Part shown: piece by piece, positions 5,996-23,937 of the stretch
Layout: every line of letters starts with the position of its first letter
Position numbering within the stretch: the stretch's first letter is position 1
Origin: an uncultured Candidatus Saccharibacteria bacterium
Lineage (GTDB): Bacteria; Patescibacteriota; Minisyncoccia; UBA6257; 1-14-0-10-44-23
Assembly: GCA_964641225.1 (NCBI GenBank)
Contig: CAZXKC010000001.1
Span: forward strand, 23,268-87,267
DNA: 64,000 bases
Reading direction: 5' to 3'
Notes under the pieces: model-generated
The model's input: the letters and a program-made list of their open reading frames with translations, nothing else
Databases searched by the model: none
Told to the model about the DNA's origin: nothing
Position numbers and translations under genes: made by a program

Positions 5996-6180
5996 ATGTA
6001 GGTTAGTATAGCATTTTGCTTTGCCTATTGAAAAAAGCCCTTTCTAGTAGTACTATTGAGCAACAATTTAATATTCCGTCGTAAGCCCGTCGGGCTTTGC
6101 CCGAATCGGGGCGGGTTTGTCACTATCAGTTGCGGCTCCGCCGCTTTGTAGCCGTCCGCCAAAGGCGGACCGTGATAGTT

Positions 6181-6215
6181 CAGGTAGAACGCCTCGCTGC
6201 GGATTTCGGCTTTTT
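6181..6215 (+). other. Degenerate tRNA-Asn 5'-half-like fragment immediately upstream of the intact tRNA
   Basis: gatagttcaggtagaacgcctcgctg repeats the D arm and the 5' anticodon stem of the adjacent tRNA with a 1-nt deletion, then diverges. Confidence 0.4.
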
Positions 6216-6226
6216 ATTTTTTACAT

Positions 6227-6299
6227 TCCGGAGTAGTTCAGTGGTAGAACGCCTCGCTGTTAACGAGGATGTCGTAGGTTCGATCCCTACCTCCGGAGC
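6227..6299 (+). tRNA. tRNA-Asn (anticodon GTT)
   Basis: Cloverleaf read directly: acceptor tccggag/ctccgga, D arm tagttcagtggtagaac, anticodon stem cctcg/cgagg with loop ctGTTaa, T arm ggttcgatccc. CCA is not encoded. Confidence 0.8.
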
Positions 6300-7768
6300 C
6301 CGATAGTTAAGTCAGCGGTAGAAAGGATGGTATTAAAGGGTTTTCGCAAGGAAAACACTAGCTTTTTGCCGTCTAGCGACGGGTTCTGAAGTAAGAAGTT
6401 CAAAAATTGCCGTTTTTCAGGCACATCAGAACTCTTAAATATCTCAAGTGCCCGTTTTGCTAGGTTGAATATAGTGTTTGCCGTGATGTAGAACTCTTCG
6501 TCAGCATCGGAATGAATACGCATATCAGTAAGCAGTTCGGCTTGGCGGTCCTTGAACTCGCGGAACTTCTTGTCATACATTTCAGCGGTAATACAGCCGT
6601 CCAGCTTGTCATTGTACATTTTGCTGATGCGGTCCTCTATCGTGTCGTATTCTTTTTTCAAGTTGGTCATACTGACCTTGTGAAATGATGCCTCGCTATT
6701 GCCCATAGACCGCAGCCCTTCGGTTATTTCTTTGATACGCTCATCTGGCATCTGAATGTTGCCCAAAATCTCGTAGATGGGTTTCAGGAGCTCGCTTTCA
6801 GGCACATACGCACGCTTACACTGCTTTCGGTAATTAGTGCAGCTGTAGTAAATAAATGTGCGTCCGCTCTTTTTTGTTTTCATTTCAGGGCTGACGCCAC
6901 AGCCACATTTTGCACATTTAATTAGGCCACGGAAAATGAACGGCTTAGCAGCGAATTGAAATGGCTTTTTGTTCCAACTCTTACGTACCTCTTCGCACTT
7001 CTCAAAAAGCTCTCTAGCAATCAGATTGCCGTAGTTATGTGTATTCTCTCGTCCTTTATATCGCATCAGGCCACAGCAGAAAGGGTCTTGCAAGATATGT
7101 GCGACCATACTGATTGATAATGGCGTATCTTGAGCACTTTTCAGGCCGAGCTTAAACATCGCTTTGCGAATGATGTGATGCGAGCTATTACCCGTTGCAT
7201 ACATCTCAAACATTTTTGCAACGAGTGGGCCATCGTGTTCATCTATCTCAATAGTATGCTTGCCATCAACGCTAACAACATTTTTGTATCCTCTAGGAGC
7301 TTTGCTCGGCCATTCGTGATTATCAAACTTCTGCGTTAAGCTACGCTTCACGTCATCTGATAAGCGATTAAGGTACTGCTTAGCAAGAAATACCTTTGCT
7401 TCCCACATAAACATCTGGTTGCCCGTGGCTTCTTTATTGATGAAGAAACCATCTTTGACGAAGTGGATTTCTAGTCCCTCGTCTCGTCGCATCACGTCTA
7501 GGTCTACGGCATCCTTAAAATTGCGGGTAGCTCGGTCTACGTTTTCGCAGAGCAGGACCTTGATATTGTGTTTGCGAATATAGGCGATGACTTCTTCAAA
7601 CTTCTTACGGATTTTTGGGCCAGCACTTTCCGAGAAGCAAAACTCTTTAACTACTTCAAAGCCCTTTTTGGCGGCATACTTTCGCAAACTATCAATCTGG
7701 GCGGGCAGCGAGCGTCCCGTTTCTTCCTGCTCTTTCGTTGATACTCTCGCTAGAATGATTGCTTTCAT
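6287..7768 (-). CDS. Large serine recombinase (resolvase/invertase-type catalytic domain, recombinase domain and zinc ribbon)
   Basis: N-terminal MKAIILARVSTKEQ...GRSLPAQ is the catalytic Ser motif. A long C-terminal extension carries a CxxC...C cluster. The 3' end overlaps the tRNA-Asn 3' end by ~12 nt on the opposite strand. Confidence 0.85.
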   Translation of the reverse strand: MKAIILARVSTKEQEETGRSLPAQIDSLRKYAAKKGFEVVKEFCFSESAGPKIRKKFEEVIAYIRKHNIKVLLCENVDRATRNFKDAVDLDVMRRDEGLEIHFVKDGFFINKEATGNQMFMWEAKVFLAKQYLNRLSDDVKRSLTQKFDNHEWPSKAPRGYKNVVSVDGKHTIEIDEHDGPLVAKMFEMYATGNSSHHIIRKAMFKLGLKSAQDTPLSISMVAHILQDPFCCGLMRYKGRENTHNYGNLIARELFEKCEEVRKSWNKKPFQFAAKPFIFRGLIKCAKCGCGVSPEMKTKKSGRTFIYYSCTNYRKQCKRAYVPESELLKPIYEILGNIQMPDERIKEITEGLRSMGNSEASFHKVSMTNLKKEYDTIEDRISKMYNDKLDGCITAEMYDKKFREFKDRQAELLTDMRIHSDADEEFYITANTIFNLAKRALEIFKSSDVPEKRQFLNFLLQNPSLDGKKLVFSLRKPFNTILSTADLTIGLRR

Positions 7769-8181: not shown

Positions 8182-9333
8182 CTATGGAGGGTGTCGCCAA
8201 GAGGACGGCGTTTCTATTGGACCAGCTCGTATGCGGAACGGCTTAAAACCATTAAGACTGTTGGCCACCTGCTTTACCCAGCCGTCATAGTTTTTATTTG
8301 AAATATCATCAATGAACTGAAGGTCTTTCGCGATGCGATACCACGTGCGGGTTGCTGCATACTTCTCAACGATTGCCCGCGTCTCTCGTATTCCTTCCTT
8401 GCTTAACGCTCGCAGCCCGACCAGATAGACTGCTTCCCTTGGTTTAATATTTGGTCTGTTTTTGAAAATCCGTTCCAAAGTTTTTTTTGGACTGCTGGCT
8501 ATATCAAACAGGAACATATTTTTGCCCGCTATAAGCTCCTGCCAATAGCTCAGTAGCACCTTCTGGCAAAGGGCCTCGTTGAACACATCCCTAAACGTTG
8601 GATTTTCCTTTAGGCCGAGCTGCTTCAGCACAGCATTGAGCTTTACCTTTTTCGCGAGCCGAACCTCAATCCGTAAAAGCTCTTTGTGCTCGCTCTTCGC
8701 TAGAACATCAAAGAGCGAACGCTGGACTTTATTTTGGTCCTTATCCATCGCTCGCTTCTCAGGCTTCTTGAGGTCTTGCACCTTGTCGTATATCACTAAT
8801 GAATGTGAGTTGGCATAAAACTGTAGCGATTGTCCGTCGTTGCGGAAGCTATCGCGGTTAAGGTCTAACTTCTTACTTACATCAACCTTATTTAATTCTT
8901 TAATAACAAAGGCCGACGTGTAGCCGTTGGTCAGTGGTATATTTTTTGAGGGATGGAATGCGGAGACCGAACCAGCTTCAATGTTCTTTTTCAGCACGTG
9001 TACGCCCATCTCAAAGAGTGCGTGTGTTAAGCACTCAACGACGGCATCAAAGTCGCTCTCTTGGACCTCATCCACGTTGTTGCCAAAGACCATTTTTGCG
9101 ACAGAAAACTCAATTTTGAGCGGTATTTGAATACCGTTTTCTGTCATCCTTTTCATCAGGGTCATTCGTGGCCGATACTTGCCCTTTTTCTTGTCCGAGG
9201 CGGTTGGGTTGTTCATACACTTCACTAGAAAATTACCTGAGCTATTAAGGATGTCGGCGTTAGGAGCAAACATATTCGGCTTAAGGATGCGATATTGGCC
9301 TTTAGGGATTGTGAGGATAACGGTGTCTAGCAT
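8182..9333 (-). CDS. Hypothetical protein (383 aa). Possibly the replication or mobilisation protein of the integrative element.
   Basis: Long ORF in island context next to the recombinase and excisionase. No motif was securely recognised, so the function is inference only. Confidence 0.45.
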   Translation of the reverse strand: MLDTVILTIPKGQYRILKPNMFAPNADILNSSGNFLVKCMNNPTASDKKKGKYRPRMTLMKRMTENGIQIPLKIEFSVAKMVFGNNVDEVQESDFDAVVECLTHALFEMGVHVLKKNIEAGSVSAFHPSKNIPLTNGYTSAFVIKELNKVDVSKKLDLNRDSFRNDGQSLQFYANSHSLVIYDKVQDLKKPEKRAMDKDQNKVQRSLFDVLAKSEHKELLRIEVRLAKKVKLNAVLKQLGLKENPTFRDVFNEALCQKVLLSYWQELIAGKNMFLFDIASSPKKTLERIFKNRPNIKPREAVYLVGLRALSKEGIRETRAIVEKYAATRTWYRIAKDLQFIDDISNKNYDGWVKQVANSLNGFKPFRIRAGPIETPSSWRHPP

Positions 9334-10811: not shown

Positions 10812-10920
10812 AGGTCTTATAGCTTACTTTAGTTTACATCCTATGACAATTCAAACGGGTCGCTTATATGACTTTGATTAACAAGAAAAAAGTGCTAAAT
10901 TATATGCACAACTTAATATG

Positions 10921-11100
10921 GCCTAACCCTCGTGGGCAACTGCGAGGTATGGCGTTAGAAACTGTTCAGGTACATTAAGCTCGTCGTCAGAGCACCTGAA
11001 CAGTCGTATTCCGAAAGGGGTACGGGTGGCCGTAAGGTCATCGCTGGCGGCGAGCTTTGTGCTTCGCTGCTTGCAAAGGCATTACAAAACTGTTCAGGTA
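10921..11100 (+). ncRNA. Candidate structured RNA / leader element, copy A, directly upstream of the C5-methyltransferase start codon
   Basis: Multi-hairpin element with GNRA loops: ctcgtgg-GCAA-ctgcgag, cgtattcc-GAAA-ggggtacg and ggcc-GTAA-ggtc, plus a long-range 10-bp stem actgttcagg/cctgaacagt. A paralogous copy at 23766-23900 preserves every helix with compensatory changes. Confidence 0.4.
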
Positions 11101-12098
11101 TGCCCAAAAAAACAAAAGGGCGGTCAAAGCACCGCGTCGTTTCTCTATTTGCAGGTTCAGGCGGTCTTGATTTAGGTTTTCATCAGGCGGGTTTTGATAT
11201 TATTTGGGCGAATGACTACGACCATTGGTCCTGCGAAACGCTCAAGAAAAACTTTCATCATACGGTTGTTGAGAAGAGCGTCGTTGATGTAACCAATGAC
11301 GAAGTGCCTGAATGCGATGTCATTTTGGGCGGTTTTCCTTGTCAGGATTTTTCTATGATTTGGAAGCGTGGCGGGATTACGACCGACCGCGGAAATCTCT
11401 ATAAGCAATTTGTCAGACTGGTGAAAGCCAAGAAGCCAAAACTTTTTATCGGCGAGAATGTCCGAGGTCTGCTGACTGCGAACGGCGGTAAGGCGTTGGA
11501 GCAGATAGTTAAAGATTTTGCCGAGGTCGGCTATGACGTTGAAGTGAACAAGGTGAACTTCGCAGACTATGGAGCTCCGCAACTACGGCAGCGGGTTTTG
11601 ATAATTGGAGTGCGTCGTGATTTGGGACGTAAATATAAGCTGCCACCTGCGACGCATACGCCTGATACTTACGTCTCTGCAAAACAAGCTTTGGCGGGCG
11701 TTGAGAAAGCCCTCTACAACAATGAGCACCTCAACGTGCAACCGAAAACAGTGCAAATGTTGAAGCTCATACCAGCAGGTGGGAACTTCACTTCAATCCC
11801 TAAAAACTCGCCTTATTACGTCAAAGGGATGATTAGCCACGTTTACCGCAGGTTGCACCCAGATAAGCCGTCTACGACGATTATAGCGGGCGGTGGAGGC
11901 GGTACGTGGGGCTATCACTACAAGGAGCATCGGCCTTTAACCAACCGCGAAAGAGCCCGTTTATTTGGTTACCCAGACGATTATATTTTCATCGGCTCTA
12001 CGACCGAGGTACGCCGACAAATCGGCAACTCTGTCCCGACTGCGGGCATACGGCCGATTGCCGAAAGCATCCGTAAGTTCCTAGACGAAACCAATTAA
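11100..12098 (+). CDS. DNA (cytosine-5)-methyltransferase
   Basis: Motif I FAGSGGLDLGF, PCQ motif (GGFPCQDFS) and ENVRGL motif. Confidence 0.9.
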   Translation: MPKKTKGRSKHRVVSLFAGSGGLDLGFHQAGFDIIWANDYDHWSCETLKKNFHHTVVEKSVVDVTNDEVPECDVILGGFPCQDFSMIWKRGGITTDRGNLYKQFVRLVKAKKPKLFIGENVRGLLTANGGKALEQIVKDFAEVGYDVEVNKVNFADYGAPQLRQRVLIIGVRRDLGRKYKLPPATHTPDTYVSAKQALAGVEKALYNNEHLNVQPKTVQMLKLIPAGGNFTSIPKNSPYYVKGMISHVYRRLHPDKPSTTIIAGGGGGTWGYHYKEHRPLTNRERARLFGYPDDYIFIGSTTEVRRQIGNSVPTAGIRPIAESIRKFLDETN

Positions 12099-12099
12099 A

Positions 12100-13119
12100 A
12101 TGATTTATTCAAACGATAAACATTTTGGTGGGCCGATGATGGAAACCGTGAAGCGTGAGATGCAGCACTCAAGCAATGTTGCGATTGCCAGCGGGTACGT
12201 TTCAGGTGATGTACTCGGTCAGTTTGAAAATGATTTTTATCGCATTGCTGAAAGCGGAGGTACTGTGAAGCTTTTGGTTGGAATGGCCTTCTACGAAGGG
12301 CTTACGGGCAAAAACTTACAACGACTTCAGACGATAGAAAACCGACTACGTACAACGAACGGTCAGAGCGGTATATTCGTATGTTACTCGCGACCATTCC
12401 ACGGAAAAATCTACAGGTTCAAAAATGGGGGCGACTTTTCAACCTATGTCGGCTCTTCTAACTTTTCGCGTAGCGGACTGTCTGAAAATCTTGAGTGCAC
12501 GGCCGAGGTCAAAGACACCGAAACAGAAGCGGGTGTTGAGGGTTATCTTGATTTCCTTTTTGCCCCTGAAAATGCCGTCTCGGTCCTGAAGGCGGACATT
12601 ACCGTACACGGGTCAAAAGAGTACCTTGAAAGGGTTTCACTACGGACGCTGGATGACCTGCAAAAGTACGACCCGAAAACGATTGATAAGAAGACGCTGC
12701 CAGAGTTTGATTATCCGCTTTCTCGCATCGTTGGCTCTGAAAAATCAAGCTTGAATGTTTATTTCGGCAAAGGGCGTTGGGCTCGTAGTACGGGCAAGGT
12801 TGCCCCGCGACCGTGGTACGAGGTTGAGCTCATCGCGTTAAAAGCGATGACAGAAAACCCTTTGTATCCAAAGGGCGATTTTAAGGCGTTTACTGACGAC
12901 GGGTATGTTATCCCAATGCGGACCAGTGGCGACTACTTTAAGAACATTCGGTCCAAAGGAAACCTACAAATCCTCGGTCAGTGGATTAAGGGCAAGCTTC
13001 AAAAAGCTAACGCTCTCATTCCTCTGACCCCTGTTACGCAGGAAACTTTGGACAAATACGGCAACGACACAATCCGTTTCTATAAAATACGCGATGGCGA
13101 GTATTATGTTGAGTTCTAA
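12100..13119 (+). CDS. PLD-family (HKD nuclease, NgoFVII-like) restriction endonuclease, cognate to the upstream methyltransferase
   Basis: HKD motif FHGKIYRF...YVGSSNFSRSG. Starts 2 nt after the methyltransferase stop. Confidence 0.65.
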   Translation: MIYSNDKHFGGPMMETVKREMQHSSNVAIASGYVSGDVLGQFENDFYRIAESGGTVKLLVGMAFYEGLTGKNLQRLQTIENRLRTTNGQSGIFVCYSRPFHGKIYRFKNGGDFSTYVGSSNFSRSGLSENLECTAEVKDTETEAGVEGYLDFLFAPENAVSVLKADITVHGSKEYLERVSLRTLDDLQKYDPKTIDKKTLPEFDYPLSRIVGSEKSSLNVYFGKGRWARSTGKVAPRPWYEVELIALKAMTENPLYPKGDFKAFTDDGYVIPMRTSGDYFKNIRSKGNLQILGQWIKGKLQKANALIPLTPVTQETLDKYGNDTIRFYKIRDGEYYVEF

Positions 13120-13475: not shown

Positions 13476-13901
13476 ATGCTTAATTTCGGCGAAAAAGTTG
13501 AAGGCGTTGAGTATCGTGAGTTGCCCTGTGCTCGTGCTGTTATTCGTAATGACGAAGGCAAGTTTGCCTTTGTAGAAGTGAACGGGCAATACTTCTTGCT
13601 CGGTGGCGGGATGGAAAAAGACGAGACGCCAGAGCAAACGATTATCCGCGAATGTCTTGAAGAAGCAGGTGCTAGGGTTACCATTAGCCGAAAAATTGGA
13701 ACAGCTGGTGATTATCTATTCGCAAAAAAGGAGCAGGCGTATTTTCACAAAGTCGGCGAGTTTTTTGAAGCGAAAATAGAAGCGATAGTCCAAGATGGCG
13801 TTGAGACTGACCATAAGCTCGTATGGAGCACGCTGGAAGCAGCGAGGCCTTTTATTAAACAAAAAAGTCAGGAGTGGGCAGTTGAGCAACTTACTAAATA
13901 A
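13476..13901 (+). CDS. NUDIX hydrolase
   Basis: Nudix box GGGMEKDETPEQTIIRECLEEAG. Confidence 0.8.
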   Translation: MLNFGEKVEGVEYRELPCARAVIRNDEGKFAFVEVNGQYFLLGGGMEKDETPEQTIIRECLEEAGARVTISRKIGTAGDYLFAKKEQAYFHKVGEFFEAKIEAIVQDGVETDHKLVWSTLEAARPFIKQKSQEWAVEQLTK

Positions 13902-13904
13902 TTT

Positions 13905-14594
13905 ATGCAGCGACCCTACACAACACTCTTTATGCTCGTCTCGGTAGACGGCAAAATCTCTACGGGCGATACCGACCTATTGGATGTAGACAAAGATTTT
14001 CCGAAAATCGCAGGCCTCAAAGAGGGCTTGCAGCAGTATTACGATATTGAAAAGACAACCGATTTTTTCTCGCTAAACACGGGACGAGTTTTTGCGAAAG
14101 TCGGAATGAACACGAGAAAGGACGAACCAAAGCAGATACCCGTTACGTTCGTGCTCATTGATAACAAACCACACCTGACGAAGAATGGCGTCGTATATTT
14201 GTCCAAGAAAGCCCAGCGAACGCTTATTGTTACAACCAACCCCAAGCACGCAGCGTTGAAGCTTAATTTGCCCAATGTTGAGGTTATCAGCTACAAAGGC
14301 GAGGTTAATCTCAAGGACCTTTTTAAGAGGCTAGCGAAGAAATACGGGGCGAAGCGAATGACAATTCAATCTGGTGGAACGCTTAATGCAACACTAGTCC
14401 GTGAGGGGCTGATTGATAAGGTGCTGCTCGTTGTTGCCCCTGCGATGATTGGTGGAAAAAATACTTCTACGTTGATGGACGGACAGTCGCTACACTCAGC
14501 GAAGGAACTGGCGAAAATAAAAACGCTTAAGTTGATTAAGGCAGAGCCCCTTAAAAACTCATACCTACTTTTAGAGTATGAGGTTATCAAGTAG
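13905..14594 (+). CDS. RibD C-terminal / DHFR-like reductase family protein
   Basis: The N-terminal LFMLVSVDGKIS pattern and overall size match the RibD_C/dihydrofolate-reductase-like fold. Confidence 0.6.
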   Translation: MQRPYTTLFMLVSVDGKISTGDTDLLDVDKDFPKIAGLKEGLQQYYDIEKTTDFFSLNTGRVFAKVGMNTRKDEPKQIPVTFVLIDNKPHLTKNGVVYLSKKAQRTLIVTTNPKHAALKLNLPNVEVISYKGEVNLKDLFKRLAKKYGAKRMTIQSGGTLNATLVREGLIDKVLLVVAPAMIGGKNTSTLMDGQSLHSAKELAKIKTLKLIKAEPLKNSYLLLEYEVIK

Positions 14595-14610
14595 CACATC
14601 TAAACCAGTT

Positions 14611-15348
14611 ATGCCCGAAGAAGAAAAGAAAACACTATATATTTTCATAGATGAGTCGGGCAATTTTGATTTTTCGGAAAATGGAACGAAGTATTTTGCC
14701 CTTACCGCTGTTAGCAGCTTAACCCCGCTCAAATCAAGGGATGCTCTTTTAGCAAAAGTATACGCGACAAAATATAAGGGTTGGAATGAGGGGCGGGATG
14801 ATTATTATTTCCACGCGACCGAGGATAAACAGGAGGTCCGCGACTGGGTCTTCGCTGCTATCAAGCAGCTAGACGACATCGCAGTTGATGTCATAGTCGC
14901 ACAAAAAAATAAGGCAAATCCATCACTCTATATTGAGCGTGAATTGCAACCTAACTTTTCAGTAAAGACCGTCCGCTACGAAGAGAAGTTTTACGAAAAA
15001 ATCTCGCAGATGCTGCTACAATATATTTGCAACCGTTATCAAAACAAAGCAGATATTGGAAAGGTGGTAGTCATCCTCGGCTCTCTATTTACTGATAGAA
15101 AACGTGGCTATGTCCTTAAGAGCTTAAAGCAGTATTTGAGGGAGCATTTTTCTAAGCCCTCGTATATTTATTTCCACGACACATCATCTGACATTAACTG
15201 CCAGATTGCTGACTACTGCGGATGGGCTGCTTTCGTGAGAGCTGAACGAAACGAGCAAAGACCGTGGGCTGAAATTAAGGGCAAAGTGAAGAGCTGCTTT
15301 AACGTTTTTGATACTGGGACAACGGAGTATTACCAATATAAAAAATGA
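14611..15348 (+). CDS. DUF3800-family protein
   Basis: N-terminal LYIFIDESGNFDF is the DUF3800 signature. The Met at 14611 is preferred because the ORF start at 14578 overlaps the previous gene. Confidence 0.55.
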   Translation: MPEEEKKTLYIFIDESGNFDFSENGTKYFALTAVSSLTPLKSRDALLAKVYATKYKGWNEGRDDYYFHATEDKQEVRDWVFAAIKQLDDIAVDVIVAQKNKANPSLYIERELQPNFSVKTVRYEEKFYEKISQMLLQYICNRYQNKADIGKVVVILGSLFTDRKRGYVLKSLKQYLREHFSKPSYIYFHDTSSDINCQIADYCGWAAFVRAERNEQRPWAEIKGKVKSCFNVFDTGTTEYYQYKK

Positions 15349-15476
15349 CCAACCCGCCTATCCTTTCGGAAGAGCCCGAGGGCTCTTATCAGCGGGTTGG
15401 AACCTTTACTAGGAGTATACCTTATTTTCGCCAGAGAAGCAATCATTGTGTAAAAGGTCTATACTAATATAAACGT

Positions 15477-15716
15477 ATGAATATACCATTTCTTACAGAG
15501 CAGAAAGATGCAGCCTTAAAGGAATTAGGGGCAATATCAGGCAGCGAAAATCAAAAAAAGGAACGGATTTCAATCATTATCCAGTATCTTGCCTCGCTCC
15601 TTGAGCCAGATAGTTTTACCGAAGCTCAACGAGAGGATTTACGTAAACTATCCCTTGAGTTAGGTTTCAAGGAAGACACAGTATTTGCCGATTGGGTTAA
15701 GATTATCGCTCCTTAG
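15477..15716 (+). CDS. Small hypothetical protein (79 aa)
   Basis: ORF only. Confidence 0.35.
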   Translation: MNIPFLTEQKDAALKELGAISGSENQKKERISIIIQYLASLLEPDSFTEAQREDLRKLSLELGFKEDTVFADWVKIIAP

Positions 15717-15740
15717 CTAGGAGAGAAAAGTGATACGTCA

Positions 15741-16259
15741 ATGGGAAAACTTTTAATTATTTGTGGGCAAGAAGGTACTGGCAAATCCACGATTGCTAAA
15801 GCAATACTTCCTCATCTCAAAAATGGTGCTGCTTTTGATGCTGAGAATATCCTACAAGTAAACCCCTTTGAGTTTGATGAAAAGTTTAAGCAGCTAGCGA
15901 TTGATAATTCTGCCGTCCTTATCAACAGTTTTTTTGGACACGGCTGCGAAAGAGTAGTTGCTGGCAGCTTTATTGGCGATAGAGCGGGCTATGATGCCTT
16001 TAAGACGAAGCTGGAACATAGCCCAAAGGTTTTTATCGTTATGCTAGTCGCGTCTCAAGAAGTTCGCGACAAGAGGCGTATGGAAAGGGCAAAGCCGACT
16101 ACCAAAGAATGGAGGGACATAGCTGACGCAAAAGCCCCGAAAGATACGACGCTAGGTGCAGCTAAAGACGAGTATGACTATTACGAGATTGATAACAGTG
16201 GACTTACCGTTGATGAGACGATTGCCGAAGTCAAAAAGAAAATCCCTGATTTTTTCTAA
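15741..16259 (+). CDS. P-loop kinase (AAA_33 / chloramphenicol-phosphotransferase-like small-molecule kinase family)
   Basis: Walker A LIICGQEGTGKST at the N-terminus. Size of 172 aa. Confidence 0.6.
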   Translation: MGKLLIICGQEGTGKSTIAKAILPHLKNGAAFDAENILQVNPFEFDEKFKQLAIDNSAVLINSFFGHGCERVVAGSFIGDRAGYDAFKTKLEHSPKVFIVMLVASQEVRDKRRMERAKPTTKEWRDIADAKAPKDTTLGAAKDEYDYYEIDNSGLTVDETIAEVKKKIPDFF

Positions 16260-16264
16260 CTGAT

Positions 16265-17464
16265 ATGTCCTTAGAAGATAGCTACAATAAAATATATTCG
16301 CATAATGAAACTGTTTTTGGTGGCGAGCCAGAGCAAGTAGTTCGGAACGTGGTTAAATACCGTACAGCTGGCTCAGCCGTTGAATTAGGGGCTGGCGAAG
16401 GCAGAAACTCTTTATTTCTGGCAAGTAATGGTTTTGAAGTTTCGGCGTACGATATATCTAAAGTTGGCATAGGCAAAATTGCCAAGCGGGCAGCCGAGCT
16501 CAAACTTAATGTGCAAGCAGAGGTCGCAGATGTTCGTGCCTTAAATCTACAACGTAATTTTGACGTTGTAGCGTCCACGTATATGCTTCATCATCTCTCG
16601 CGAGAAGAAGCACTGGCGTTGGTCAAACGAATGCAAGAACATACCAACCCTGAAGGGTTAAATGCAATTACTGTTTTTACTAAAAGTGGCGATTTTTACA
16701 AAGGTAATCCCGAAACTGACCGATTTTATCCAGACGCAGGCGAATTAAAAAGTTTATATGCTGAATGGGATATTTTAGAGTATGAGGAGCTTGAAGTTCC
16801 AGCTGTTGATACAAAACCAGATGGAAGTCAGATGTCTAATGTGGCTGCCCGATTGCTGGCGAGGAAAATGCAAAAAAGCCCCATTGAACATAGTTCAAAT
16901 AATGAGAAGTCGGCAGCCTTTGAAACGCTCTATCAAGGTATGCTTGCTCAAGATGGAGGGTTTGTTGAGTATTCCTTACCGTACCCTAAATATGATTTTC
17001 TCAATTTCTTAGTAAGAGAAAAGGGCGTTCTTTTGCACGGTTCAAATCAGCCAGATATTCGCGAGCTTGAGCCAAAGCAGGCGAATTGTAAGTCAAAAAA
17101 GTTTGGCAATATGCAAGCAGTATATGCTACCCAAGACAGCATCCTACCACTTTTTTTCGCTGTTAGAGACAGGAGTAAGATGCGTGGCAGAACTGAAAGT
17201 GGTTACAGAGAAGAATATGTTGATGGTCAGCAGAAAAAAACATACGGCTTCGCGGTAAGTAGTCAGGCAGTGCTTAATTCAAATCCTTGGTTGGATGGCG
17301 TTGTCTATATTCTTCCAAGTGATAGTTTTGAACAGGGCACTGACGATGAAGGGCATCAAATTGATGAGTTCGTGAGCCGTACGCCAGTGAAAGCAATAGC
17401 AAGGTTGCGAGTTGGGCCAGAAGATTTCCCTTACTTAGATAAAGTTACCATAAAGGAGAGTTAG
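16265..17464 (+). CDS. SAM-dependent methyltransferase (TehB-like N-terminal domain) fused to a ~200-aa C-terminal domain of unknown function
   Basis: VELGAGEGRNSLFLASNGFEVSAYDIS is methyltransferase motif I, followed by an acidic motif II. The C-terminal half was not recognised. Confidence 0.55.
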   Translation: MSLEDSYNKIYSHNETVFGGEPEQVVRNVVKYRTAGSAVELGAGEGRNSLFLASNGFEVSAYDISKVGIGKIAKRAAELKLNVQAEVADVRALNLQRNFDVVASTYMLHHLSREEALALVKRMQEHTNPEGLNAITVFTKSGDFYKGNPETDRFYPDAGELKSLYAEWDILEYEELEVPAVDTKPDGSQMSNVAARLLARKMQKSPIEHSSNNEKSAAFETLYQGMLAQDGGFVEYSLPYPKYDFLNFLVREKGVLLHGSNQPDIRELEPKQANCKSKKFGNMQAVYATQDSILPLFFAVRDRSKMRGRTESGYREEYVDGQQKKTYGFAVSSQAVLNSNPWLDGVVYILPSDSFEQGTDDEGHQIDEFVSRTPVKAIARLRVGPEDFPYLDKVTIKES

Positions 17465-17479
17465 CCTAGAAACAGCCCT

Positions 17480-18538
17480 ATGAATTACACCGAGACAGAA
17501 GAATATCAGCGTCAAATCAAGGAGCAGTATAGCTCGCGGGTTAAAAAGTTCGCTCCAGTTGATGTTGAGAAGGTCCTGCATACTTTGGGCATTGAGGTCG
17601 GAAAGGATGACCTTAAGCCAATCACAAAGGGCAATATGAACGCTACCTACGTAGCACCCGCTTTGGTTGTAAAAATTAACGAGGATAAAAAGACGGCAGA
17701 CTATGCAGCGTATGTTGTAGCCTCGTCGCTAGCTGATAAGCATCCGATACCGAAGGTTTTGGCGTATGACCACTTTGATAAAACGGCATACGAAGTACTT
17801 GTAACGACCAGATTATCAGGTCAGACACTCATTGATACCATTTTTGACCTTGACCAAGCTGCTCGTGAGAAGCTCTTTAGCCAGATGCTTGATGTCGTAG
17901 ACGGACTTTTTACTATGAGGTTTGATAGCGTCGGGCACTTTCGTAACCCAGAGGAAAAGTTTGCAACATACAGCGAGTACCTTCGGCACAGCTTAATGCA
18001 ATCCGCTGACCAGATTAAACGGCAGAAAACGTGGGATGCCAGTGATATAGATAAAATCGTTGCCTATGCCAGCAAGCATCTCAACGTATTTGATGACGAG
18101 AAAGAGTGCACCTTTGTACATACGGATTTGCATATGGGCAATATCCTGCACGAAGGCGATAAGCTAACAGGCCTGATTGATTTTGACAGTGCCTTTCGTG
18201 GCCCACGCGTTGCCTCATTGCCGATGATTTTGGGGTTTGTCTTCAATCCGCAGCAATACACCGAGGGAAGCGACTACTTCCCGAAATACAAAGGGCAGCA
18301 ATTCCTGTATTTCCTGCCAATCCTGAAAGCTCGCTGGCCCGCTGTTTTCAGCGACCCGCAACTACTACGAAAACTCAACCTGCTTAATATCATTGAAAAT
18401 CTGGGCTGGGTTGCCGACAACTGGTCAAAAGAGTGGAACAAGCAACTTATTGATATGTTCTTCGCTACAGAAATTGATAAGGACCTTAAAGTTTCGTACT
18501 TCGGGCAGCGACTGGAAAGTGGTTCTTACGTCGGTTAA
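17480..18538 (+). CDS. Aminoglycoside/choline-kinase-fold phosphotransferase (APH family)
   Basis: Catalytic loop FVHTDLHMGNILH and the metal-binding IDFDSA motif. Confidence 0.75.
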   Translation: MNYTETEEYQRQIKEQYSSRVKKFAPVDVEKVLHTLGIEVGKDDLKPITKGNMNATYVAPALVVKINEDKKTADYAAYVVASSLADKHPIPKVLAYDHFDKTAYEVLVTTRLSGQTLIDTIFDLDQAAREKLFSQMLDVVDGLFTMRFDSVGHFRNPEEKFATYSEYLRHSLMQSADQIKRQKTWDASDIDKIVAYASKHLNVFDDEKECTFVHTDLHMGNILHEGDKLTGLIDFDSAFRGPRVASLPMILGFVFNPQQYTEGSDYFPKYKGQQFLYFLPILKARWPAVFSDPQLLRKLNLLNIIENLGWVADNWSKEWNKQLIDMFFATEIDKDLKVSYFGQRLESGSYVG

Positions 18539-18673
18539 CGCTTCAGGGGCATCAATTGCCGTAATCTCAAAAGACCGCTAAACTCAAGTTCTTCACGAAT
18601 ATGCTTCCAATCAAGGGTTCTAAACTTGTTCAATAGAGGGAGCCAATGTTTCTTGTGAATCCGACCCGTCTCT

Positions 18674-19735
18674 ATGAAAGACGCGCGTGTTAATCCTTCC
18701 GAGGCAATAGAGATATTTTCTCTATTAAAAATAGAGATTGAGGGTTATACTAATTCAGTGTATACCAAGAACTTATATCTCAGTTCGGTGACTCGCAGCC
18801 TTGTCATGCTTACTGATTATTTAAAGCTTTCCTCTTCGATATCGTTAACAGATGCGAATAAGCTTAGCGAAGATTTTTTTTGTGGTTTATTGAATCTTAT
18901 TTTTGGATACAATCTCCAGAACTTAAATTCCGGTAAGCAGAATTATCCCGCAATTGATCTTGGGGATAAAGACAGAAAACTTTCAGTGCAAGTTACTATT
19001 GATAATTCGAGCGAAAAAATCAAAAAAACACTTTCGATTTTTGATGCAAATAATGTTGGAAAAGAATACCAGCGTGTTATTGTGTTTATCGCGGGATATA
19101 AGCAGAAACGTTACAGCGTTGAATTTACAAGTTCGAACATAAATTTTTCAAAAGGTGATGATATTCTAGATCTGAATGATCTAGTTAAATCGATCGCAGC
19201 AAGCGATACTAAAAAAATTTGCGAAATTGATAAATATCTAGAGAAGGAGCTTGTTTCAAAAATTCAAGGATCCAATATTGATCCTACGCGTTTGCTGGAT
19301 GAAGATATTCGAGATATCTTAGGGGCAATATCGGATTTTATTGAGAATAAAAATGAAAAAGTCATTCACAATGAAACTGTTATCGTGCGAGATGAAAATT
19401 TTATTGAAAGAAAAAACGAATTAAATAATATATCGGAAATATTGTTCAATAACGAGATAACGCCCAGCCTAATTTATTCAGAGCAGGTCAAAAATTTTCT
19501 AATTAATCCTATCAATAAAAATCACTTAGCAAAATATCTGTCAATAACTCATAGGATCCAAGTCGATTACAAACGAGGGATGGCGGATCGAAAAATTGAA
19601 GGCGTCGAGTTCGTATTTAGAAAAATTTTCGAAGGTTTGACTGGGCAATATAATAATCGTCATTTAGACAGCACAAAAATCCTTATTGTGCTTCATAATA
19701 TGTATTTTAATTGCGATATCGGGCTGAATCCTTAG
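18674..19735 (+). CDS. Putative effector component of an ABC-three-component (ABC-3C) system, possibly SMEK-domain type
   Basis: 353 aa, AT-rich. First gene of a tightly packed three-gene operon. Domain assignment is from recollection of operon architecture and is tentative. Confidence 0.45.
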   Translation: MKDARVNPSEAIEIFSLLKIEIEGYTNSVYTKNLYLSSVTRSLVMLTDYLKLSSSISLTDANKLSEDFFCGLLNLIFGYNLQNLNSGKQNYPAIDLGDKDRKLSVQVTIDNSSEKIKKTLSIFDANNVGKEYQRVIVFIAGYKQKRYSVEFTSSNINFSKGDDILDLNDLVKSIAASDTKKICEIDKYLEKELVSKIQGSNIDPTRLLDEDIRDILGAISDFIENKNEKVIHNETVIVRDENFIERKNELNNISEILFNNEITPSLIYSEQVKNFLINPINKNHLAKYLSITHRIQVDYKRGMADRKIEGVEFVFRKIFEGLTGQYNNRHLDSTKILIVLHNMYFNCDIGLNP

Positions 19736-19739
19736 TTTT

Positions 19740-19976
19740 ATGCTCAAGCCGACAAAATATACTAATCTTCAAACCTCAGTAGTCTCTCTGGCAGCAGAGA
19801 TTTTGAAGATATTTTCTCATAACAAAGTTTTGCAGTATGATGATCTTTTCAGAAAAATCATTGATAGGAAAGGCAAAGAAGCGAAGGAGAACTTTCTTCT
19901 CGCTCTTAATTTCTTATTTTTGTTAGGCAAAATCGAGTATTACCAAAAGGGTGATTTATTTGAATACCGAAAATGA
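19740..19976 (+). CDS. ABC-3C middle component (small ~78-aa protein)
   Basis: Small ORF sandwiched between the effector and the ATPase. Its stop overlaps the next start in an ATGA junction. Confidence 0.45.
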   Translation: MLKPTKYTNLQTSVVSLAAEILKIFSHNKVLQYDDLFRKIIDRKGKEAKENFLLALNFLFLLGKIEYYQKGDLFEYRK

Positions 19977-21739
19977 AGATTAAGAAAATTTATTCAAACA
20001 ACATAGCAATGCGCCCCATTTTATTTAATGAGGGTTTTTGTGTAGTGTATGGCGATGTTGAAAAGCGCAATGATAGAAACGAACATAATCTTGGCAAGAC
20101 TTCATTGGTGCATTTGATCGATTTTTTGCTTTTAAAAAAGGGCGGGGAAAAGCACAACATTTTTAATAAATATAAAAATAAATTTTCTGGATGGATATTT
20201 TTCATTGAACTTGATTTGGGCAACAGTCAGTATTTAACTATAAAAAGAGGGGTAGATAAATCGAGCGAGGTTTCTTTCAAATCGCATAGTAATTCTAACC
20301 AAGATTTTTCCACAGAGACTAGCTGGGATCGCAAAGATACTAAGCTTTATGCAAAAAAAGAAGAAAATTCTGTAGCGATTTTAGAAGAATATTTAAATTT
20401 TGATGTCGCGGCAGATTATGGGTATAGACATTTTTTGGCATATCTCCTAAGAACACAATATGATTACGTAGATGTTTTTAAGATGAACCAATTTGAAGGT
20501 AAGGACGTTGACTGGAAACCCCACCTTTTTAGTCTTCTGGGGTATTCCGATCAGAATGTATTAAAAAAATATCGAATTGATATTGAAATCGGCAACATCA
20601 GAAATATTTTAAAAACAATTGTTGGGGGATCTGATTTTATAAATCAGACATATACGATAAAGGCTGCTATCGCTGAAAGAGAGAAAGAGAAGAAGCAAGC
20701 GCAAGATAGTTTAGATAAATTTGATTTCTATATGAGAGAGGCGAAGCTCAACAAGGAGTTAATTGAAGAAATCGAATCTGGCATATCAAGATTCAACTCT
20801 GAAAGATATAGGATTGAATACGAAATCAATAAAATTAAAGTTTCTTTAGAAAATGGCCCCACTTTTTCATTGGAAGAAATAAAAAAGGTGTTTGATGAAA
20901 CTAAGCTATATTTTCCTGATGATCTTAAGAAGGGTTATCAAGAAGTTATCGAATTTAACACTAATCTTTCCGCTGAGCGATCCAAGTATCTGAAGGAGAT
21001 GCTAAAGAACAATTTAGATTATTTGTCGGAGATTAAAGCAAAGCTCGAAGATCTTAACAAAAACAGGCAGCAGGTTCTGGCTGTTTTAAGAGAGGGCGAT
21101 ACTTTCAAAAAGTATAAGGCATTGCAAGAAAACATCGGCAAGATTAATGAACAAATTCATCAGTATGGAGAAAAATTAAAGAGTCTCGACACTGCCGAAA
21201 ATTATAACCAGAAAAAATCTCTTTTAAGAGATGAGTCGAAGCAAGCTGCAAAGTTAGTCAAGGAAACTATTGATCAGGGAAGTGAAATTTTTGATTCTAT
21301 AAAACAGCTGTTTACGGAAATTTATAAAGATACTATGGAAAACACTGCCGTGCTAGTCGTTCGACCAAACTCAGAGGGTAATCCAGAATTCGAAGCAAAG
21401 ACCTTAGGCGAAGATCCTGATCAATTGACCGGTAAAAGCGAAGGATACACATCTACGAAAGTACAATGCGCAGCTTTTGTTCTAGCCATTTTAGCCGTCT
21501 ATTCTTCTTTGGGTAAAAGATTTTTTAAATTCGCCTATTATGATGGCTTATTCGAGGGATGGGGCGATAATCCGAAAATTAAATTTATCGAGACTATAAG
21601 AGATTTTTCTGATAAGTATGATATCCAATACATCGTTAGTATGATTAAAAGTGATGTACCCGTAGGTTTTGAGTTTAATGAAGGAGAAGAAATAGCAAAA
21701 TTAGATACCGAGCATACTCTCTTTGGTATTAATTTTTAA
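19973..21739 (+). CDS. ABC-3C system ABC-type ATPase with a long coiled-coil insertion (SMC/Rad50-like architecture, DUF2326-like)
   Basis: Degenerate N-terminal P-loop (NLGKTSLVHL), a ~250-aa E/K-rich coiled-coil middle, and a C-terminal segment with a Walker-B-like hhhhDG motif (KFAYYDGLFEGW). Confidence 0.55.
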   Translation: MKIKKIYSNNIAMRPILFNEGFCVVYGDVEKRNDRNEHNLGKTSLVHLIDFLLLKKGGEKHNIFNKYKNKFSGWIFFIELDLGNSQYLTIKRGVDKSSEVSFKSHSNSNQDFSTETSWDRKDTKLYAKKEENSVAILEEYLNFDVAADYGYRHFLAYLLRTQYDYVDVFKMNQFEGKDVDWKPHLFSLLGYSDQNVLKKYRIDIEIGNIRNILKTIVGGSDFINQTYTIKAAIAEREKEKKQAQDSLDKFDFYMREAKLNKELIEEIESGISRFNSERYRIEYEINKIKVSLENGPTFSLEEIKKVFDETKLYFPDDLKKGYQEVIEFNTNLSAERSKYLKEMLKNNLDYLSEIKAKLEDLNKNRQQVLAVLREGDTFKKYKALQENIGKINEQIHQYGEKLKSLDTAENYNQKKSLLRDESKQAAKLVKETIDQGSEIFDSIKQLFTEIYKDTMENTAVLVVRPNSEGNPEFEAKTLGEDPDQLTGKSEGYTSTKVQCAAFVLAILAVYSSLGKRFFKFAYYDGLFEGWGDNPKIKFIETIRDFSDKYDIQYIVSMIKSDVPVGFEFNEGEEIAKLDTEHTLFGINF

Positions 21740-21768: not shown

Positions 21769-23121
21769 TTATGCCTGGATTCGCATGCAGATCAACTTGT
21801 CCTTGACCTCGATCTTGCTTTTGATGCAGGCAATAATCTCCCTCTTTTCGTCCTTTGTTCCGTTAAGAAGGGTATGCTTTACGTAGTTTCGGACATCGGC
21901 ATCGCACGTTGCCCGATCAAATTCAGTTTCACGGCCAAGCACCGTGTAGCTGAACTTTTTATAATGGTTGATTTCTTTCTCAATTTTTTCTTTGATCGCA
22001 ATTTCGTCTACGTCAATTTTATCAATCAGGCGGACAAGCTGCTGCGCTAGATCCTCCTCGCGGATCGGTTTCTGTTTACAGTAGCGGTCACGCGATTTGG
22101 TGCAGTGATAGTAGACATATCGATTCTGGCCACCATCTTTAAGCTTTTTGAATTTTTCCTCTGCTGTTATCCCTGACTCGCAGCCACCGCAATAAAACAA
22201 GCGGGTAAAGTTAAATTCATTCGTGCCAGGGTGCCGCCGTGCTGGCATAAGCATGTTAGCCCTCGCTTTTAGGTAGAGATCTTTATCAATAATCGGATCA
22301 TGCGCTCCCTTATACCATTTGCCGCTTCCAACAGGGTATTCGAACTCTCCGTAGTAGAAGGTATCTTGGAGAATTCTGAAAATCCCGCTCAATGCAATCC
22401 TTTTGCCGGATCGAGTCGTAATATTTTTTTCTTGCGTTAGCCAAGTGTATAAATCCCTGCCACTCGCATTTTCGTAAGCCACCTTCTCAAACATCTCCTT
22501 TACTATCGGTCCACGAATCGGATCAATCGTCATTTTCTTTTGACCCTTATCCGCAAACTTATCGTGCAGATACCCAATAGGTGGCAATCCTGGCCGCCAC
22601 CCCATTTCGCACTTTGCTCGTAGTCCTCGCTTCACATTTTCACCTTTATGGTCATTTTCCAATTTTGCCTGACTGCACAGAATCATAAGCAAGAATTTTT
22701 CGTTCGGTGAATTCGTAAATCTTTGGCCATGAGTTCTGATATCAACTAGAGCTTTTTGGTCCATCAGATCAACGATACTGCCAAGGTCGCCCGCATTTCT
22801 GCTAATACGAGATGGATCCCACGCGATAATACCGTTGAACATACCCTTGCGGATATCAACGATCATCTGTTGGAATACAGGTCGTTGTCCTGACTCTTTT
22901 GCCGAATGAGATTCGCGGCGCACCTCGGCAACCTCGATACCTTCGCGCGCTGCCATCGCTAACATTTCGTTGATCTGCGAATCAATGGAGAGAGCCTGTA
23001 ATTCGTCCTGTTCGCTAGATTTTCTGGCATACAGGCAATACCTGACGTTTATTTGAGGTTGTTCCTTCCTTTGGACGCCAACTCCCGGCACATCTTTTAA
23101 TTGTGTATTTTCCATATACAC
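21769..23121 (-). CDS. Large serine recombinase (paralog of the 30660-32258 gene)
   Basis: YARKSSEQDELQALSIDSQ catalytic motif. Shares FYYGEFEYP and YYHCTK motifs with the third recombinase. Confidence 0.85.
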   Translation of the reverse strand: MYMENTQLKDVPGVGVQRKEQPQINVRYCLYARKSSEQDELQALSIDSQINEMLAMAAREGIEVAEVRRESHSAKESGQRPVFQQMIVDIRKGMFNGIIAWDPSRISRNAGDLGSIVDLMDQKALVDIRTHGQRFTNSPNEKFLLMILCSQAKLENDHKGENVKRGLRAKCEMGWRPGLPPIGYLHDKFADKGQKKMTIDPIRGPIVKEMFEKVAYENASGRDLYTWLTQEKNITTRSGKRIALSGIFRILQDTFYYGEFEYPVGSGKWYKGAHDPIIDKDLYLKARANMLMPARRHPGTNEFNFTRLFYCGGCESGITAEEKFKKLKDGGQNRYVYYHCTKSRDRYCKQKPIREEDLAQQLVRLIDKIDVDEIAIKEKIEKEINHYKKFSYTVLGRETEFDRATCDADVRNYVKHTLLNGTKDEKREIIACIKSKIEVKDKLICMRIQA

Positions 23122-23616: not shown

Positions 23617-23765
23617 GGGGACGATAATACGCTGGAAACAAGCTATAGTCTAGAAATACTAGCTTGTTGGTAACTAAGGCTTCGCAAGCCTCCGATACTA
23701 AGCTAGGGTACTGGCAGCGCAACAGGTTTCGCGCTAAAATCTCATTAACAACTTAATAGGAAGAG

Positions 23766-23900
23766 CAGCCTAACCCGCGTGGGCAACCACGCGGTATGGC
23801 TCAAAATCGTTGAACACAAAAAGCTCCTAGTCAGAGCGTGTTCAACGTCGTACGCCGAAAGGTGTACGGGCCCGCAAGGGTATCTGGCTGGGGGCTTTTT
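23766..23900 (+). ncRNA. Candidate structured RNA / leader element, copy B, upstream of the zinc-ribbon membrane protein gene
   Basis: Same architecture as copy A: cgcgtgg-GCAA-ccacgcg, long-range stem cgttgaacac/gtgttcaacg, cgtacgcc-GAAA-ggtgtacg and gccc-GCAA-gggt. Ends in ggctgggggcttttt. Confidence 0.4.
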
Positions 23901-23937
23901 ATTTCCCTCAGTTAATTATTCATTAATCATTAACCGT

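Follow-up and report, generated by a model that had tools for sequence, protein, structure and literature searches.

Two structured elements in a 64,000-nucleotide stretch of contig CAZXKC010000001.1 from an uncultured Candidatus Saccharibacteria bacterium (the window, numbered from its first letter) are additional members of the LOOT RNA family, Rfam RF03000, and probably act in cis as a leader of some kind for the genes that follow them. Each element, termed copy A and copy B below, ends in a conserved segment (Y') that is complementary to the loop of the long-range stem P3 and runs into a T-rich tract, and in copy A the 5' strand of P3 (X) is repeated directly before the start codon of a DNA methyltransferase gene. 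The reading that we prefer, held tentatively and at a little under an even chance, is that LOOT is a cis-acting leader toggling between two folds.

LOOT was introduced into Rfam 14 (PMC7779021) as a metagenome-derived RNA from the Weinberg/Breaker alignments, and its structure was refined with CaCoFold (Rfam 15, PMC11701678; bioRxiv 10.1101/2020.02.04.933952). Rfam assigns RF03000 the type 'Gene; sRNA' (small RNA). The literature searched attaches no function, organism or genomic logic to LOOT; the main text of the 2017 discovery paper is without LOOT, and its supplement was outside the search. From the present analysis the family gains a host range, in genomes of the candidate phyla radiation (CPR) type, and a recurring position, namely the promoter-proximal leader of cargo operons in tRNA-Asn-integrating serine-recombinase elements. 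It also gains a conserved 3' helix outside the Rfam model and, in a third of cases, a three-way covarying arrangement by which the start codon, usually that of a DNA methyltransferase gene, could be buried. An orphan motif is in this way turned into a testable hypothesis of how mobile elements of largely uncultured bacteria gate restriction-modification and other cargo genes.

Identification of two LOOT members

Copy A (10920-11042) matched RF03000 in cmscan with 78.0 bits and copy B (23767-23882) with 78.7 bits, against a gathering score of 46.4. The E-values were 5e-15 in a 601-base search and 5.4e-13 over the whole window for copy A, and 2.9e-15 in a 501-base search and 3.7e-13 over the whole window for copy B. 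Both matches spanned model positions 1-121 of 121 and were untruncated. When the whole window was scanned against Rfam 15, three matches were above threshold, one tRNA and the two LOOT copies. No other Rfam family came near in a permissive cmscan of the two regions, where LOOT was accompanied by chance-level matches only, and no known riboswitch aptamer was matched by either copy in that scan (SAM-II, for example, reached 17.7 bits against a threshold of 44).

Helices P1 to P5 are present, paired and compensated in both copies. Both also carry CCUAAC...UAUGG and CCGAAAGG, which correspond to the CCUAA...AUGG internal loop and the GAAA-capped fourth hairpin of RF03000. Compared with the family, the modelled region is without any difference, having the same P1-P5, GAAA loop and CCUAA/AUGG motif, while Y' and its T-tract, the Y:Y' helix and the copies X2 and Y2 described below all lie outside the 121-position Rfam model. 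Because both copies match RF03000, they are not a new class. The initial annotation, made from the sequence alone, had placed them in no known class and had itself named an Rfam hit as the outcome that would overturn this; that claim falls with the RF03000 match.

Structure of the two copies

The two structured elements are real, lie on the plus strand and read as they were first described, with their coordinates confirmed. The low identity with retained helices that had been proposed for them was also borne out, the copies being 68-72% identical with all of the listed helices present. In P3, 11 of 11 positions are paired in copy A and 10 of 11 in copy B, with seven pairs changed on both sides, and P2 and P4 are each paired 8/8 in both copies. 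P5 and the apical mini-hairpin (gctc-N7-gagc) were likewise found in both, as were three GNRA tetraloops per copy (GCAA, GAAA and GUAA in copy A; GCAA, GAAA and GCAA in copy B). The plus strand of copy A folded at -67.5 kcal/mol (z = -5.7 relative to shuffles) as against -44.7 for the minus strand, and that of copy B at -72.0 kcal/mol (z = -8.8) as against -59.2.

The features of copy A are as follows.

10893-10901 (+): putative extended -10 box, TGcTAAATT, from reading the sequence
10908-10919 (+): leader motif ACAACTTAATAT, read from the sequence, directly 5' of P1
10920-11042 (+): LOOT core, from cmscan with RF03000
10920-10923 and 10951-10954 (+): P1, within the LOOT core
10922-10927 and 10948-10952 (+): receptor segments CCUAAC and UAUGG
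10928-10935 and 10940-10947 (+): P2
10961-10971 and 10994-11004 (+): P3 strands X and X'
10977-10990 (+): P3 loop segment Y
11005-11024 (+): P4, with GAAA at 11013-11016
11025-11042 (+): P5
11044-11057 (+): Y' (CTGGCGGCGAGCTT), complementary to Y in the P3 loop
11056-11063 (+): T-rich tract (TTTGTGCT), continuing from Y'
11061-11070 (+): Y2 (GCTTCGCTGC), a degenerate copy of Y that RNAfold places in a local hairpin with Y', the T-rich tract being in the loop
11086-11099 (+): X2, AAA followed by ACTGTTCAGGT, an exact copy of X that abuts the methylase ATG

The leader of copy A comprises the core with a 3' extension to ~11063 and then continues to the ATG at 11100. A simple consensus scanner gave no promoter call upstream of copy A. 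The features of copy B are as follows.

23711-23740 (+): promoter-like site from a consensus scan, CTGGCA and TAAAAT with an 18-nt spacer
Within 23711-23766 (+): leader AACAACTTAATAGGAAGAGC, containing the conserved leader motif
23767-23882 (+): LOOT core, from cmscan with RF03000, with an extension to ~23903
23808-23817 and 23838-23847 (+): P3 strands X and X'
23818-23835 (+): Y
23849-23868 (+): P4
23869-23882 (+): P5
23883-23900 (+): Y' and T-tract (TCTGGCTGGGGGCTTTTT), with 18 contiguous pairs possible with Y
23905-23911 (+): short Y2, CCCTCAG

Homologues and covariation

A search strategy based on one fixed P4 pattern, GTCGTANNCCGAAAGGNNTACGG, was used to gather homologues. The pattern was present in 20 stretches of species-representative genomes, 13 of which are LOOT by Rfam, and in 51 stretches of metagenome contigs. 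It had no matches in IMG/VR, and copy A had no blastn match in phage and plasmid collections; with both searches empty there is no sign of a phage or plasmid reservoir. Named homologue genomes were metagenome-assembled genomes (MAGs) of CPR/Patescibacteria, including Saccharibacteria, Berkelbacteria, Uhrbacteria, Parcubacteria and Minisyncoccia, and others were unclassified "bacterium" MAGs. Four further MAGs are nominally Gammaproteobacteria by their labels.

A covariance model (R1) built from 15 sequences together with 30 nt of 3' flank gave 51 full-length matches, of which 45 were distinct (alignment A2), and scored copy A at 137 bits and copy B at 106 bits. The covariance-model alignment replaced a MAFFT-only alignment, which was dropped with 23-33 of 42 pairs satisfied in non-reference sequences. 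Over 46 distinct rows, standard pairs occupied 91% of pair cells (86-91% for P1-P5), compared to 33-47% when partners were slid by 1-3 columns. The covariation first noticed between two copies extends to the homologues, since none of 500 shuffles of these rows equalled or exceeded the observed value. The search pattern forces GAAA, and the invariance of P4 and its loop within this set is therefore not evidence; that the loop is conserved in the family is given by the upper-case consensus of the Rfam model.

Two homologous loci (L048:7519-7673 and L028:11117-11270) have a chimeric P3 in which the 5' strand is that of one close relative and the 3' strand that of another, with central mismatches. 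Such a pattern suggests that related islands have recombined within LOOT, where island backbone and cargo meet.

The canonical 11-nt GAAA-tetraloop receptor, known from group I introns, is CCUAAG...UAUGG. The sequence ggtatggc, which had been taken for a linker, is indeed conserved in both copies but is the 3' half of such a motif, forming with CCUAAC on the 5' side an 11-nt-type receptor in P1/P2. Positions closing the receptor co-vary, being A/C in 30 sequences, C/U in 10 (including both window copies), A/U in three and G/U in one, and the G/U member (L044) has the exact canonical receptor CCUAAG..UAUGG. Based on the receptor motif and the GAAA loop of P4 in the Rfam consensus, we infer that the P4 loop would dock into the P1/P2 receptor.

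A conserved 3' helix that crosses P3

Two features go beyond what had been annotated, namely a conserved 3' segment pairing with the P3 loop and, in copy A, a second P3 5' strand abutting the ATG. P3 itself is hypervariable in sequence yet paired. The 3' segment, Y' (CUGGCGGCGAGCU in copy A), lies directly 3' of P5 and is complementary to Y (AGCUCGUCGUCAG) in the apical P3 loop. In alignment A2, where the model had been fitted without this helix, Y:Y' consists of 12 pairs with 95% of cells paired and six pairs changed on both sides. One pair, for example, is GC in 21 sequences, CG in 18, UG in three and UA in two, and another is UA in 32 and CG in 10. The helix also includes positions of invariant sequence, among them a conserved U-G pair. 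In the most divergent member (L043), Y:Y' is kept in different letters, GGCCACAUGAG with CUCGUGUGGCC. The apical mini-hairpin of the Rfam model was only ~73% paired, even on an alignment fitted to it.

Often Y:Y' extends to 14-20 contiguous pairs through additional pairing of the T-rich tract beyond Y' with purines on the 5' side of Y. At least five T within the eight nt that follow the GC-rich Y' were found in 42 of 45 sequences. A G+C-rich stem (Y:Y', 12-20 bp) followed by a T-rich tract is as expected of an intrinsic terminator, but the short hairpin loop of such a terminator is absent, as the Y:Y' arms are ~55-60 nt apart and enclose X', P4 and P5.

Topologically, Y:Y' crosses P3. The energy gap between folds with P3 enforced and folds with Y:Y' enforced was at most ~3 kcal/mol in most of the 45 sequences, and the unconstrained minimum-energy fold used Y:Y' in about half of them, as it did in both window copies (10920-11063 for copy A). 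The two crossing helices are supported by covariation and similar in predicted energy, and their alternation or a pseudoknot with a shorter Y:Y' core are both conceivable.

A copy of the P3 strand at the start codon

In 13 of the 45 loci, including copy A, the P3 5' strand is repeated exactly over 10-12 nt just before the downstream ATG (X2); no such repeat was found ahead of the copy B ATG at 23938. X2 is preceded by AAA(A), as is X inside LOOT, and ends 0-5 nt from the ATG except at locus L023, where the distance is ~10 nt. In copy A, X (10961-10971), X' (10994-11004) and X2 (11089-11099 for the 11-nt match) precede the ATG at 11100. The copy A X' has an 11-nt exact Watson-Crick match to X2 that is equalled by one of 44 other X' sequences, and a 15-mer search allowing up to two mismatches identified only the X and X2 sites within the window. 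Specificity was general to the class, with X' from other loci matching equally well in 0-3 of 44 swaps. The segments show three-way covariation, with a matching X' and a matching X2 for each of at least nine unrelated X sequences.

Y2, a degenerate copy of Y located after Y', and a Y':Y2 hairpin were present in all 13 X2-class loci, with the consequence that X':X2 pairing would close a four-way junction of P4, P5 and the Y':Y2 hairpin. This fold was the predicted minimum of the full leader in several X2-class loci (RNAfold). Many loci that lack X2, including copy B, have the Y':Y2 hairpin as well.

Accessibility of the start region was calculated as the predicted unpaired fraction of positions -14 to +4, with P3 enforced or with X and Y unavailable. 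Between these two states the fraction fell from 0.58 to 0.28 in the X2 class and was 0.55 versus 0.56 in the other loci. For the two window copies the corresponding values were 0.64 and 0.26 (copy A) and an unchanged 0.69 versus 0.67 (copy B). Genes encoding DNA methyltransferases followed 7 of 12 X2-class leaders compared to 1 of 30 others (Fisher p = 2e-4). By Pfam, the methylases of copy A and L039 are of the C5 type and those of L036, L019 and L044 of the N6/N4 type, while the assignment at L014 and L065 was made from N-terminal motifs only.

A different arrangement was seen at one locus without X2 (L064:2021-2173, minus strand), where Y' forms with its downstream copy a perfect 19-bp hairpin that ends right before an ATG codon. 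The first downstream open reading frame (ORF) of at least 35 aa at this locus starts ~70 nt further along.

Position at the head of an operon

A co-oriented ORF begins 12-117 nt after the LOOT tail in 43 of the 45 distinct loci, the contigs of the remaining two being cut off too early. All 41 loci with an evaluable start region have a co-oriented downstream ORF. The genes located downstream are heterogeneous across loci. Upstream of P1, at a distance of 20-35 nt, homologues have TATAAT-like boxes that are often preceded by TG. In the two window copies the RNA begins ~10-25 nt beyond a promoter-like -10 box. A conserved AACAAYTTAATA-like motif lies between the -10-like box and P1 in ~27 of 45 loci and is found in the window at 10908-10919 and 23748-23760; it could be the transcript 5' end or an operator. 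When loci were compared by eye, neither the TTTGTG tail nor the P3 loop showed consistently covarying pairing with the AACAAYTTAATA motif. A possible helix between the T-tract and the A-rich junction, judged in the same way, had A/U complementarity only and no covariation.

A proposed two-fold leader and its alternatives

Under the two-fold reading, fold A would have P3 formed with X' locked in the stem and Y' either free or in the Y2 hairpin, leaving the start site open and the gene on. In fold B the long Y:Y' helix would run into the T-tract in a terminator-like form with P3 open, which would favor termination or attenuation and turn the gene off. Fold B would also free X', and where X2 is present, as in copy A, X' could pair with it at the ATG and block translation initiation. 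Copy A would therefore be a leader with the full translational layer (X2 and Y2) ahead of a restriction-modification methyltransferase, and copy B a core switch with a short Y2. The translational layer would not be the universal function, because two thirds of the loci lack X2. Selection between the folds may be made by a ligand, a protein, Mg2+ or folding kinetics. A broader claim, which we regard as rather doubtful, is that LOOT constitutes a previously unrecognised class of cis-acting switch on serine-recombinase elements of CPR/Patescibacteria, in which the Y:Y' and T-tract output reaches into the P3 loop and the freed P3 strand silences establishment genes, for example those of restriction-modification methyltransferases, at their start codon. 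If true, a function would attach to the orphan LOOT family, which could then be tested as a new signal-sensing RNA that responds to a ligand or protein or acts as a folding timer.

A number of observations weigh against two alternating folds. The LOOT transcript ends are inferred only, and copy B is itself among the two thirds of loci without X2. The terminator-like stem is atypical in being built around a ~60-nt insertion (X', P4 and P5), and the part of the T-tract that pairs with purines 5' of Y may be plain sequence of a helix or loop. Being the first to be transcribed, P3 is expected to form ahead of Y:Y', and the model provides nothing that opens it. Few conserved unpaired nucleotides are available for a ligand pocket, no ligand or partner is indicated, and the Rfam type is that of an sRNA gene. 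The homologue set, gathered with a single fixed P4 pattern, is a biased subset of the family. In addition, the coexistence of P3 with a ~12-bp Y:Y' core in a pseudoknot, and hence a static fold, is conceivable because the linkers of ~5 and ~3 nt are sterically borderline.

Such coexistence is the basis of an alternative in which LOOT is a static pseudoknotted leader domain, with P3 and Y:Y' formed together and held by the tetraloop and receptor as a constitutive 5' module. Its suggested roles include protection of the mRNA from 5' decay, processive antitermination of the put/EAR type and a platform for a host or island protein, with X2 and Y2 as a gene-specific add-on. The covariation of both helices fits this account, as do linker lengths that by our own estimate permit a pseudoknot with a ~12-bp Y:Y' core, the good conservation of LOOT in ~30 loci without X2 and its invariable promoter-proximal position at the operon head; the invariant Y:Y' positions, including the conserved U-G pair, suggest recognition by a partner. 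We nevertheless consider a static domain unlikely, if a serious contender, as the 14-20 contiguous pairs with 0-3 nt linkers in copy B, L054, L001 and the L067 group cannot fully coexist with P3, the near-equal fold energies and the complete alternative fold of the X2 class are switch-like, and no partner protein is conserved beside LOOT. The Rfam type would agree better with a trans-acting sRNA of ~140-150 nt that ends at Y:Y' and the T-tract as an integral terminator and targets other RNAs or proteins, or the adjacent mRNA through X':X2. A GC-rich Y:Y' followed by a T-rich tract in 42/45 sequences, a compact fold with a tetraloop and receptor, and an X' running antisense to the neighboring gene's start region at 13 loci are consistent with this idea. 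It is made improbable by the co-oriented ORF nearby at every evaluable locus, where a typical tail-to-ATG gap of ~40 nt leaves no room for a separate promoter of the downstream gene, and by the fact that in the free RNA X' would be locked in P3 or enclosed by Y:Y'. A search of the window for trans targets of the copy B P3 strands was also unconvincing, as it returned only matches with three mismatches and a single 12-nt match inside the Rep-like gene, of which none coincided with a start codon and all were taken as chance.

The strong link of LOOT to recombinase-bearing, tRNA-Asn-integrated elements (19/24 loci, see below), the replication genes situated between the recombinase gene and LOOT and the hypervariability of P3, like that of a programmable segment, raise the idea of an RNA cofactor of the mobile-element life cycle. 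Such an RNA would guide or regulate the recombinase, or serve as a replication primer or control RNA for Rep or Prim-Pol, with X/X' as the specificity determinant. Large serine recombinases, however, recognise their sites through their own protein domains, and X matches its own X' and X2 only and not the tRNA-Asn attachment region. The recombinase gene is found at variable distance and in either orientation (-0.6 to -6.3 kb when divergent, +3.5 to +6 kb when co-directional), 5 of 24 loci have no nearby recombinase and recombinase 3 of the window (30660-32258) has no LOOT, making a cofactor role very improbable. Scarcely credible is a role at the DNA level, whether as a single-strand origin or as a site for recombination or attC-like folding, and so is a non-functional duplicated remnant. 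A mobile element with a rolling-circle-type Rep-like gene (a weak Pfam match below the curated cut-off) would suit the former, and the core of copy A lies between the direct repeats X and X2. But the GNRA loops and the 11-nt-type receptor are tertiary motifs of RNA, the element is preceded by a promoter-like box and followed by a co-oriented gene, P1/P2 are part of the conserved structure and fall outside the X..X2 interval, and only the plus strand folds well because of G-U pairs. The 45 diverged copies moreover keep their helices by compensation. Strand-specific folding and compensatory change across homologues thus uphold the view of the initial annotation that the elements are a functional RNA rather than a DNA site or a fossil duplication.

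Comparison to known RNA systems

As a probable cis-acting leader, LOOT resembles riboswitch-type leaders (e.g. pseudoknot-dependent classes such as ZTP and preQ1) in its promoter proximity and in combining a conserved folded domain with an alternative helix, likewise conserved, that leads into a T-tract. A subset of LOOTs is further alike in having a predicted start-site-sequestering helix that would compete for a strand of the putative sensor domain. The differences are that LOOT matches no known family of this type, has few conserved unpaired nucleotides and heterogeneous downstream genes, and that its terminator-like helix encloses two hairpins and ~60 nt.

In hok-type type I toxin mRNAs, fold-back control is exerted by the tac, ucb, dcb and fbi elements. 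LOOT is similar in that repeats would compete for one complementary partner and leave the start region open or closed, with X in the place of the activator, X' as the shared partner and X2 as the start-site copy. The families are unrelated, LOOT having neither an antisense RNA nor a toxin gene and its competing strand being inside a tertiary-folded domain.

A CCUAA..UAUGG-type receptor and a GAAA loop, which would lock two helices side by side, are shared with c-di-GMP-I (GEMM-I) riboswitches, group I/II introns and RNase P. Only this tertiary motif is common to them, and the LOOT copies are without a match to those models. Like the bridge and seek RNAs of IS110/IS1111, LOOT is a structured noncoding RNA beside a recombinase gene in a mobile element and has a hypervariable segment. 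Its neighbor is a large serine recombinase rather than a DEDD enzyme, and the variable segment is a closed stem rather than an internal guide loop, with no complementarity to the integration site. Membership among the bridge/seek RNAs is not indicated, given neighboring genes of the Resolvase/Recombinase/Zn-ribbon recombinase type and an X that pairs only with its own X' and X2.

Genomic context and recombinase islands

The genes and tRNA surrounding the two copies in the window are as follows.

6226-6301 (+): tRNA-Asn(GTT), the left end of island 1 (ARAGORN)
6287-7768 (-): large serine recombinase 1, with its 3' end overlapping the tRNA-Asn 3' end (Pfam Resolvase, Recombinase, Zn_ribbon_recom)
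11100-12098 (+): C5 cytosine DNA methyltransferase gene, 57 nt after the copy A core (Pfam PF00145, E = 1.3e-78)
12100-13119 (+): NgoFVII-like restriction endonuclease gene (Pfam PF09565, PF20731)
21769-23121 (-): large serine recombinase 2, divergent and 0.65 kb upstream of copy B (Pfam)
23938-24459 (+): membrane protein gene encoding an N-terminal zinc ribbon and a tRNA_anti-like OB fold, 55 nt after copy B (Pfam PF12869, E = 3.7e-24)
30660-32258 (-): large serine recombinase 3, 532 aa, 7 kb downstream of copy B, clustering with recombinases 1 and 2

The placement of each copy 5' of the first rightward cargo gene, the methylase gene for copy A and the zinc-ribbon membrane protein gene for copy B, is as originally reported. 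Recombinase 1 lies at one end of its island and abuts the tRNA gene, the arrangement of a tRNA-integrating large-serine-recombinase element, and the window seems to hold three recombinase-bearing segments in tandem. No third LOOT was found near recombinase 3 (30660-32258), where the best candidate, obtained with filters off, scored 11 bits inside an ORF and was rejected. LOOT is therefore not obligatory for such elements.

Clustering of the ORFs around LOOTs yielded one dominant family, the large serine recombinases, beside 26 of 51 matches. The proposed association with recombinase islands stands, since 19 of the 24 distinct loci for which at least 3.3 kb of upstream sequence was available have a recombinase gene, but it is not universal, the other five having no recombinase close by. 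Like those beside copies A and B, most of these genes are divergently oriented at 0.6-6.3 kb upstream, and five are co-directional and 3.5-6 kb downstream. The recombinase 3' end overlaps the 3' end of tRNA-Asn(GTT) in the window and at L028, L036, L041, L048, L063 and L067. The replication-type genes between the recombinase gene and LOOT are a Prim-Pol in four loci and DUF5659 in six. A conserved protein partner was not found; the proteins encoded just upstream of the two copies (423 aa and 144 aa) were matched by neither Pfam nor PHROG and lacked homologues beside other LOOTs.

In the window this interval holds a Rep-like ORF (8182-9333, minus strand) with a weak Phage_CRI-like Pfam match below the curated cut-off. 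Inside this ORF, in antisense, is a 12-nt exact copy of the copy B P3 5' strand (TCGTTGAACACA) at 8576-8587 (+), for which the chance probability is ~0.05.

A partial copy of the tRNA-Asn 5' half (gatagttcaggtagaacgcctcgctgcgg) was located at 6174-6202, ~25-30 nt upstream of the intact gene (compare 6231-6258), and may be the scar of an earlier integration or rearrangement. A 9-nt identity (GTTCAGGTA) between the copy A X and this remnant was dropped, the chance expectation being ~0.5 per window.

After the restriction-modification pair, the island 1 cargo at 13476-21739 (+) includes genes annotated as NUDIX, RibD_C, DUF3800, a small AAA/NTPase, a TehB-like methyltransferase and an APH-type kinase, together with an SMEK/CTD12 protein of the ABC-three-component type and a DUF2326 protein. 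Judged from these annotations, the cargo is a putatively defence- and resistance-flavoured set. Further downstream, 36018-43649 (+) is occupied by a very long ORF of 2543 aa with a GTG start.

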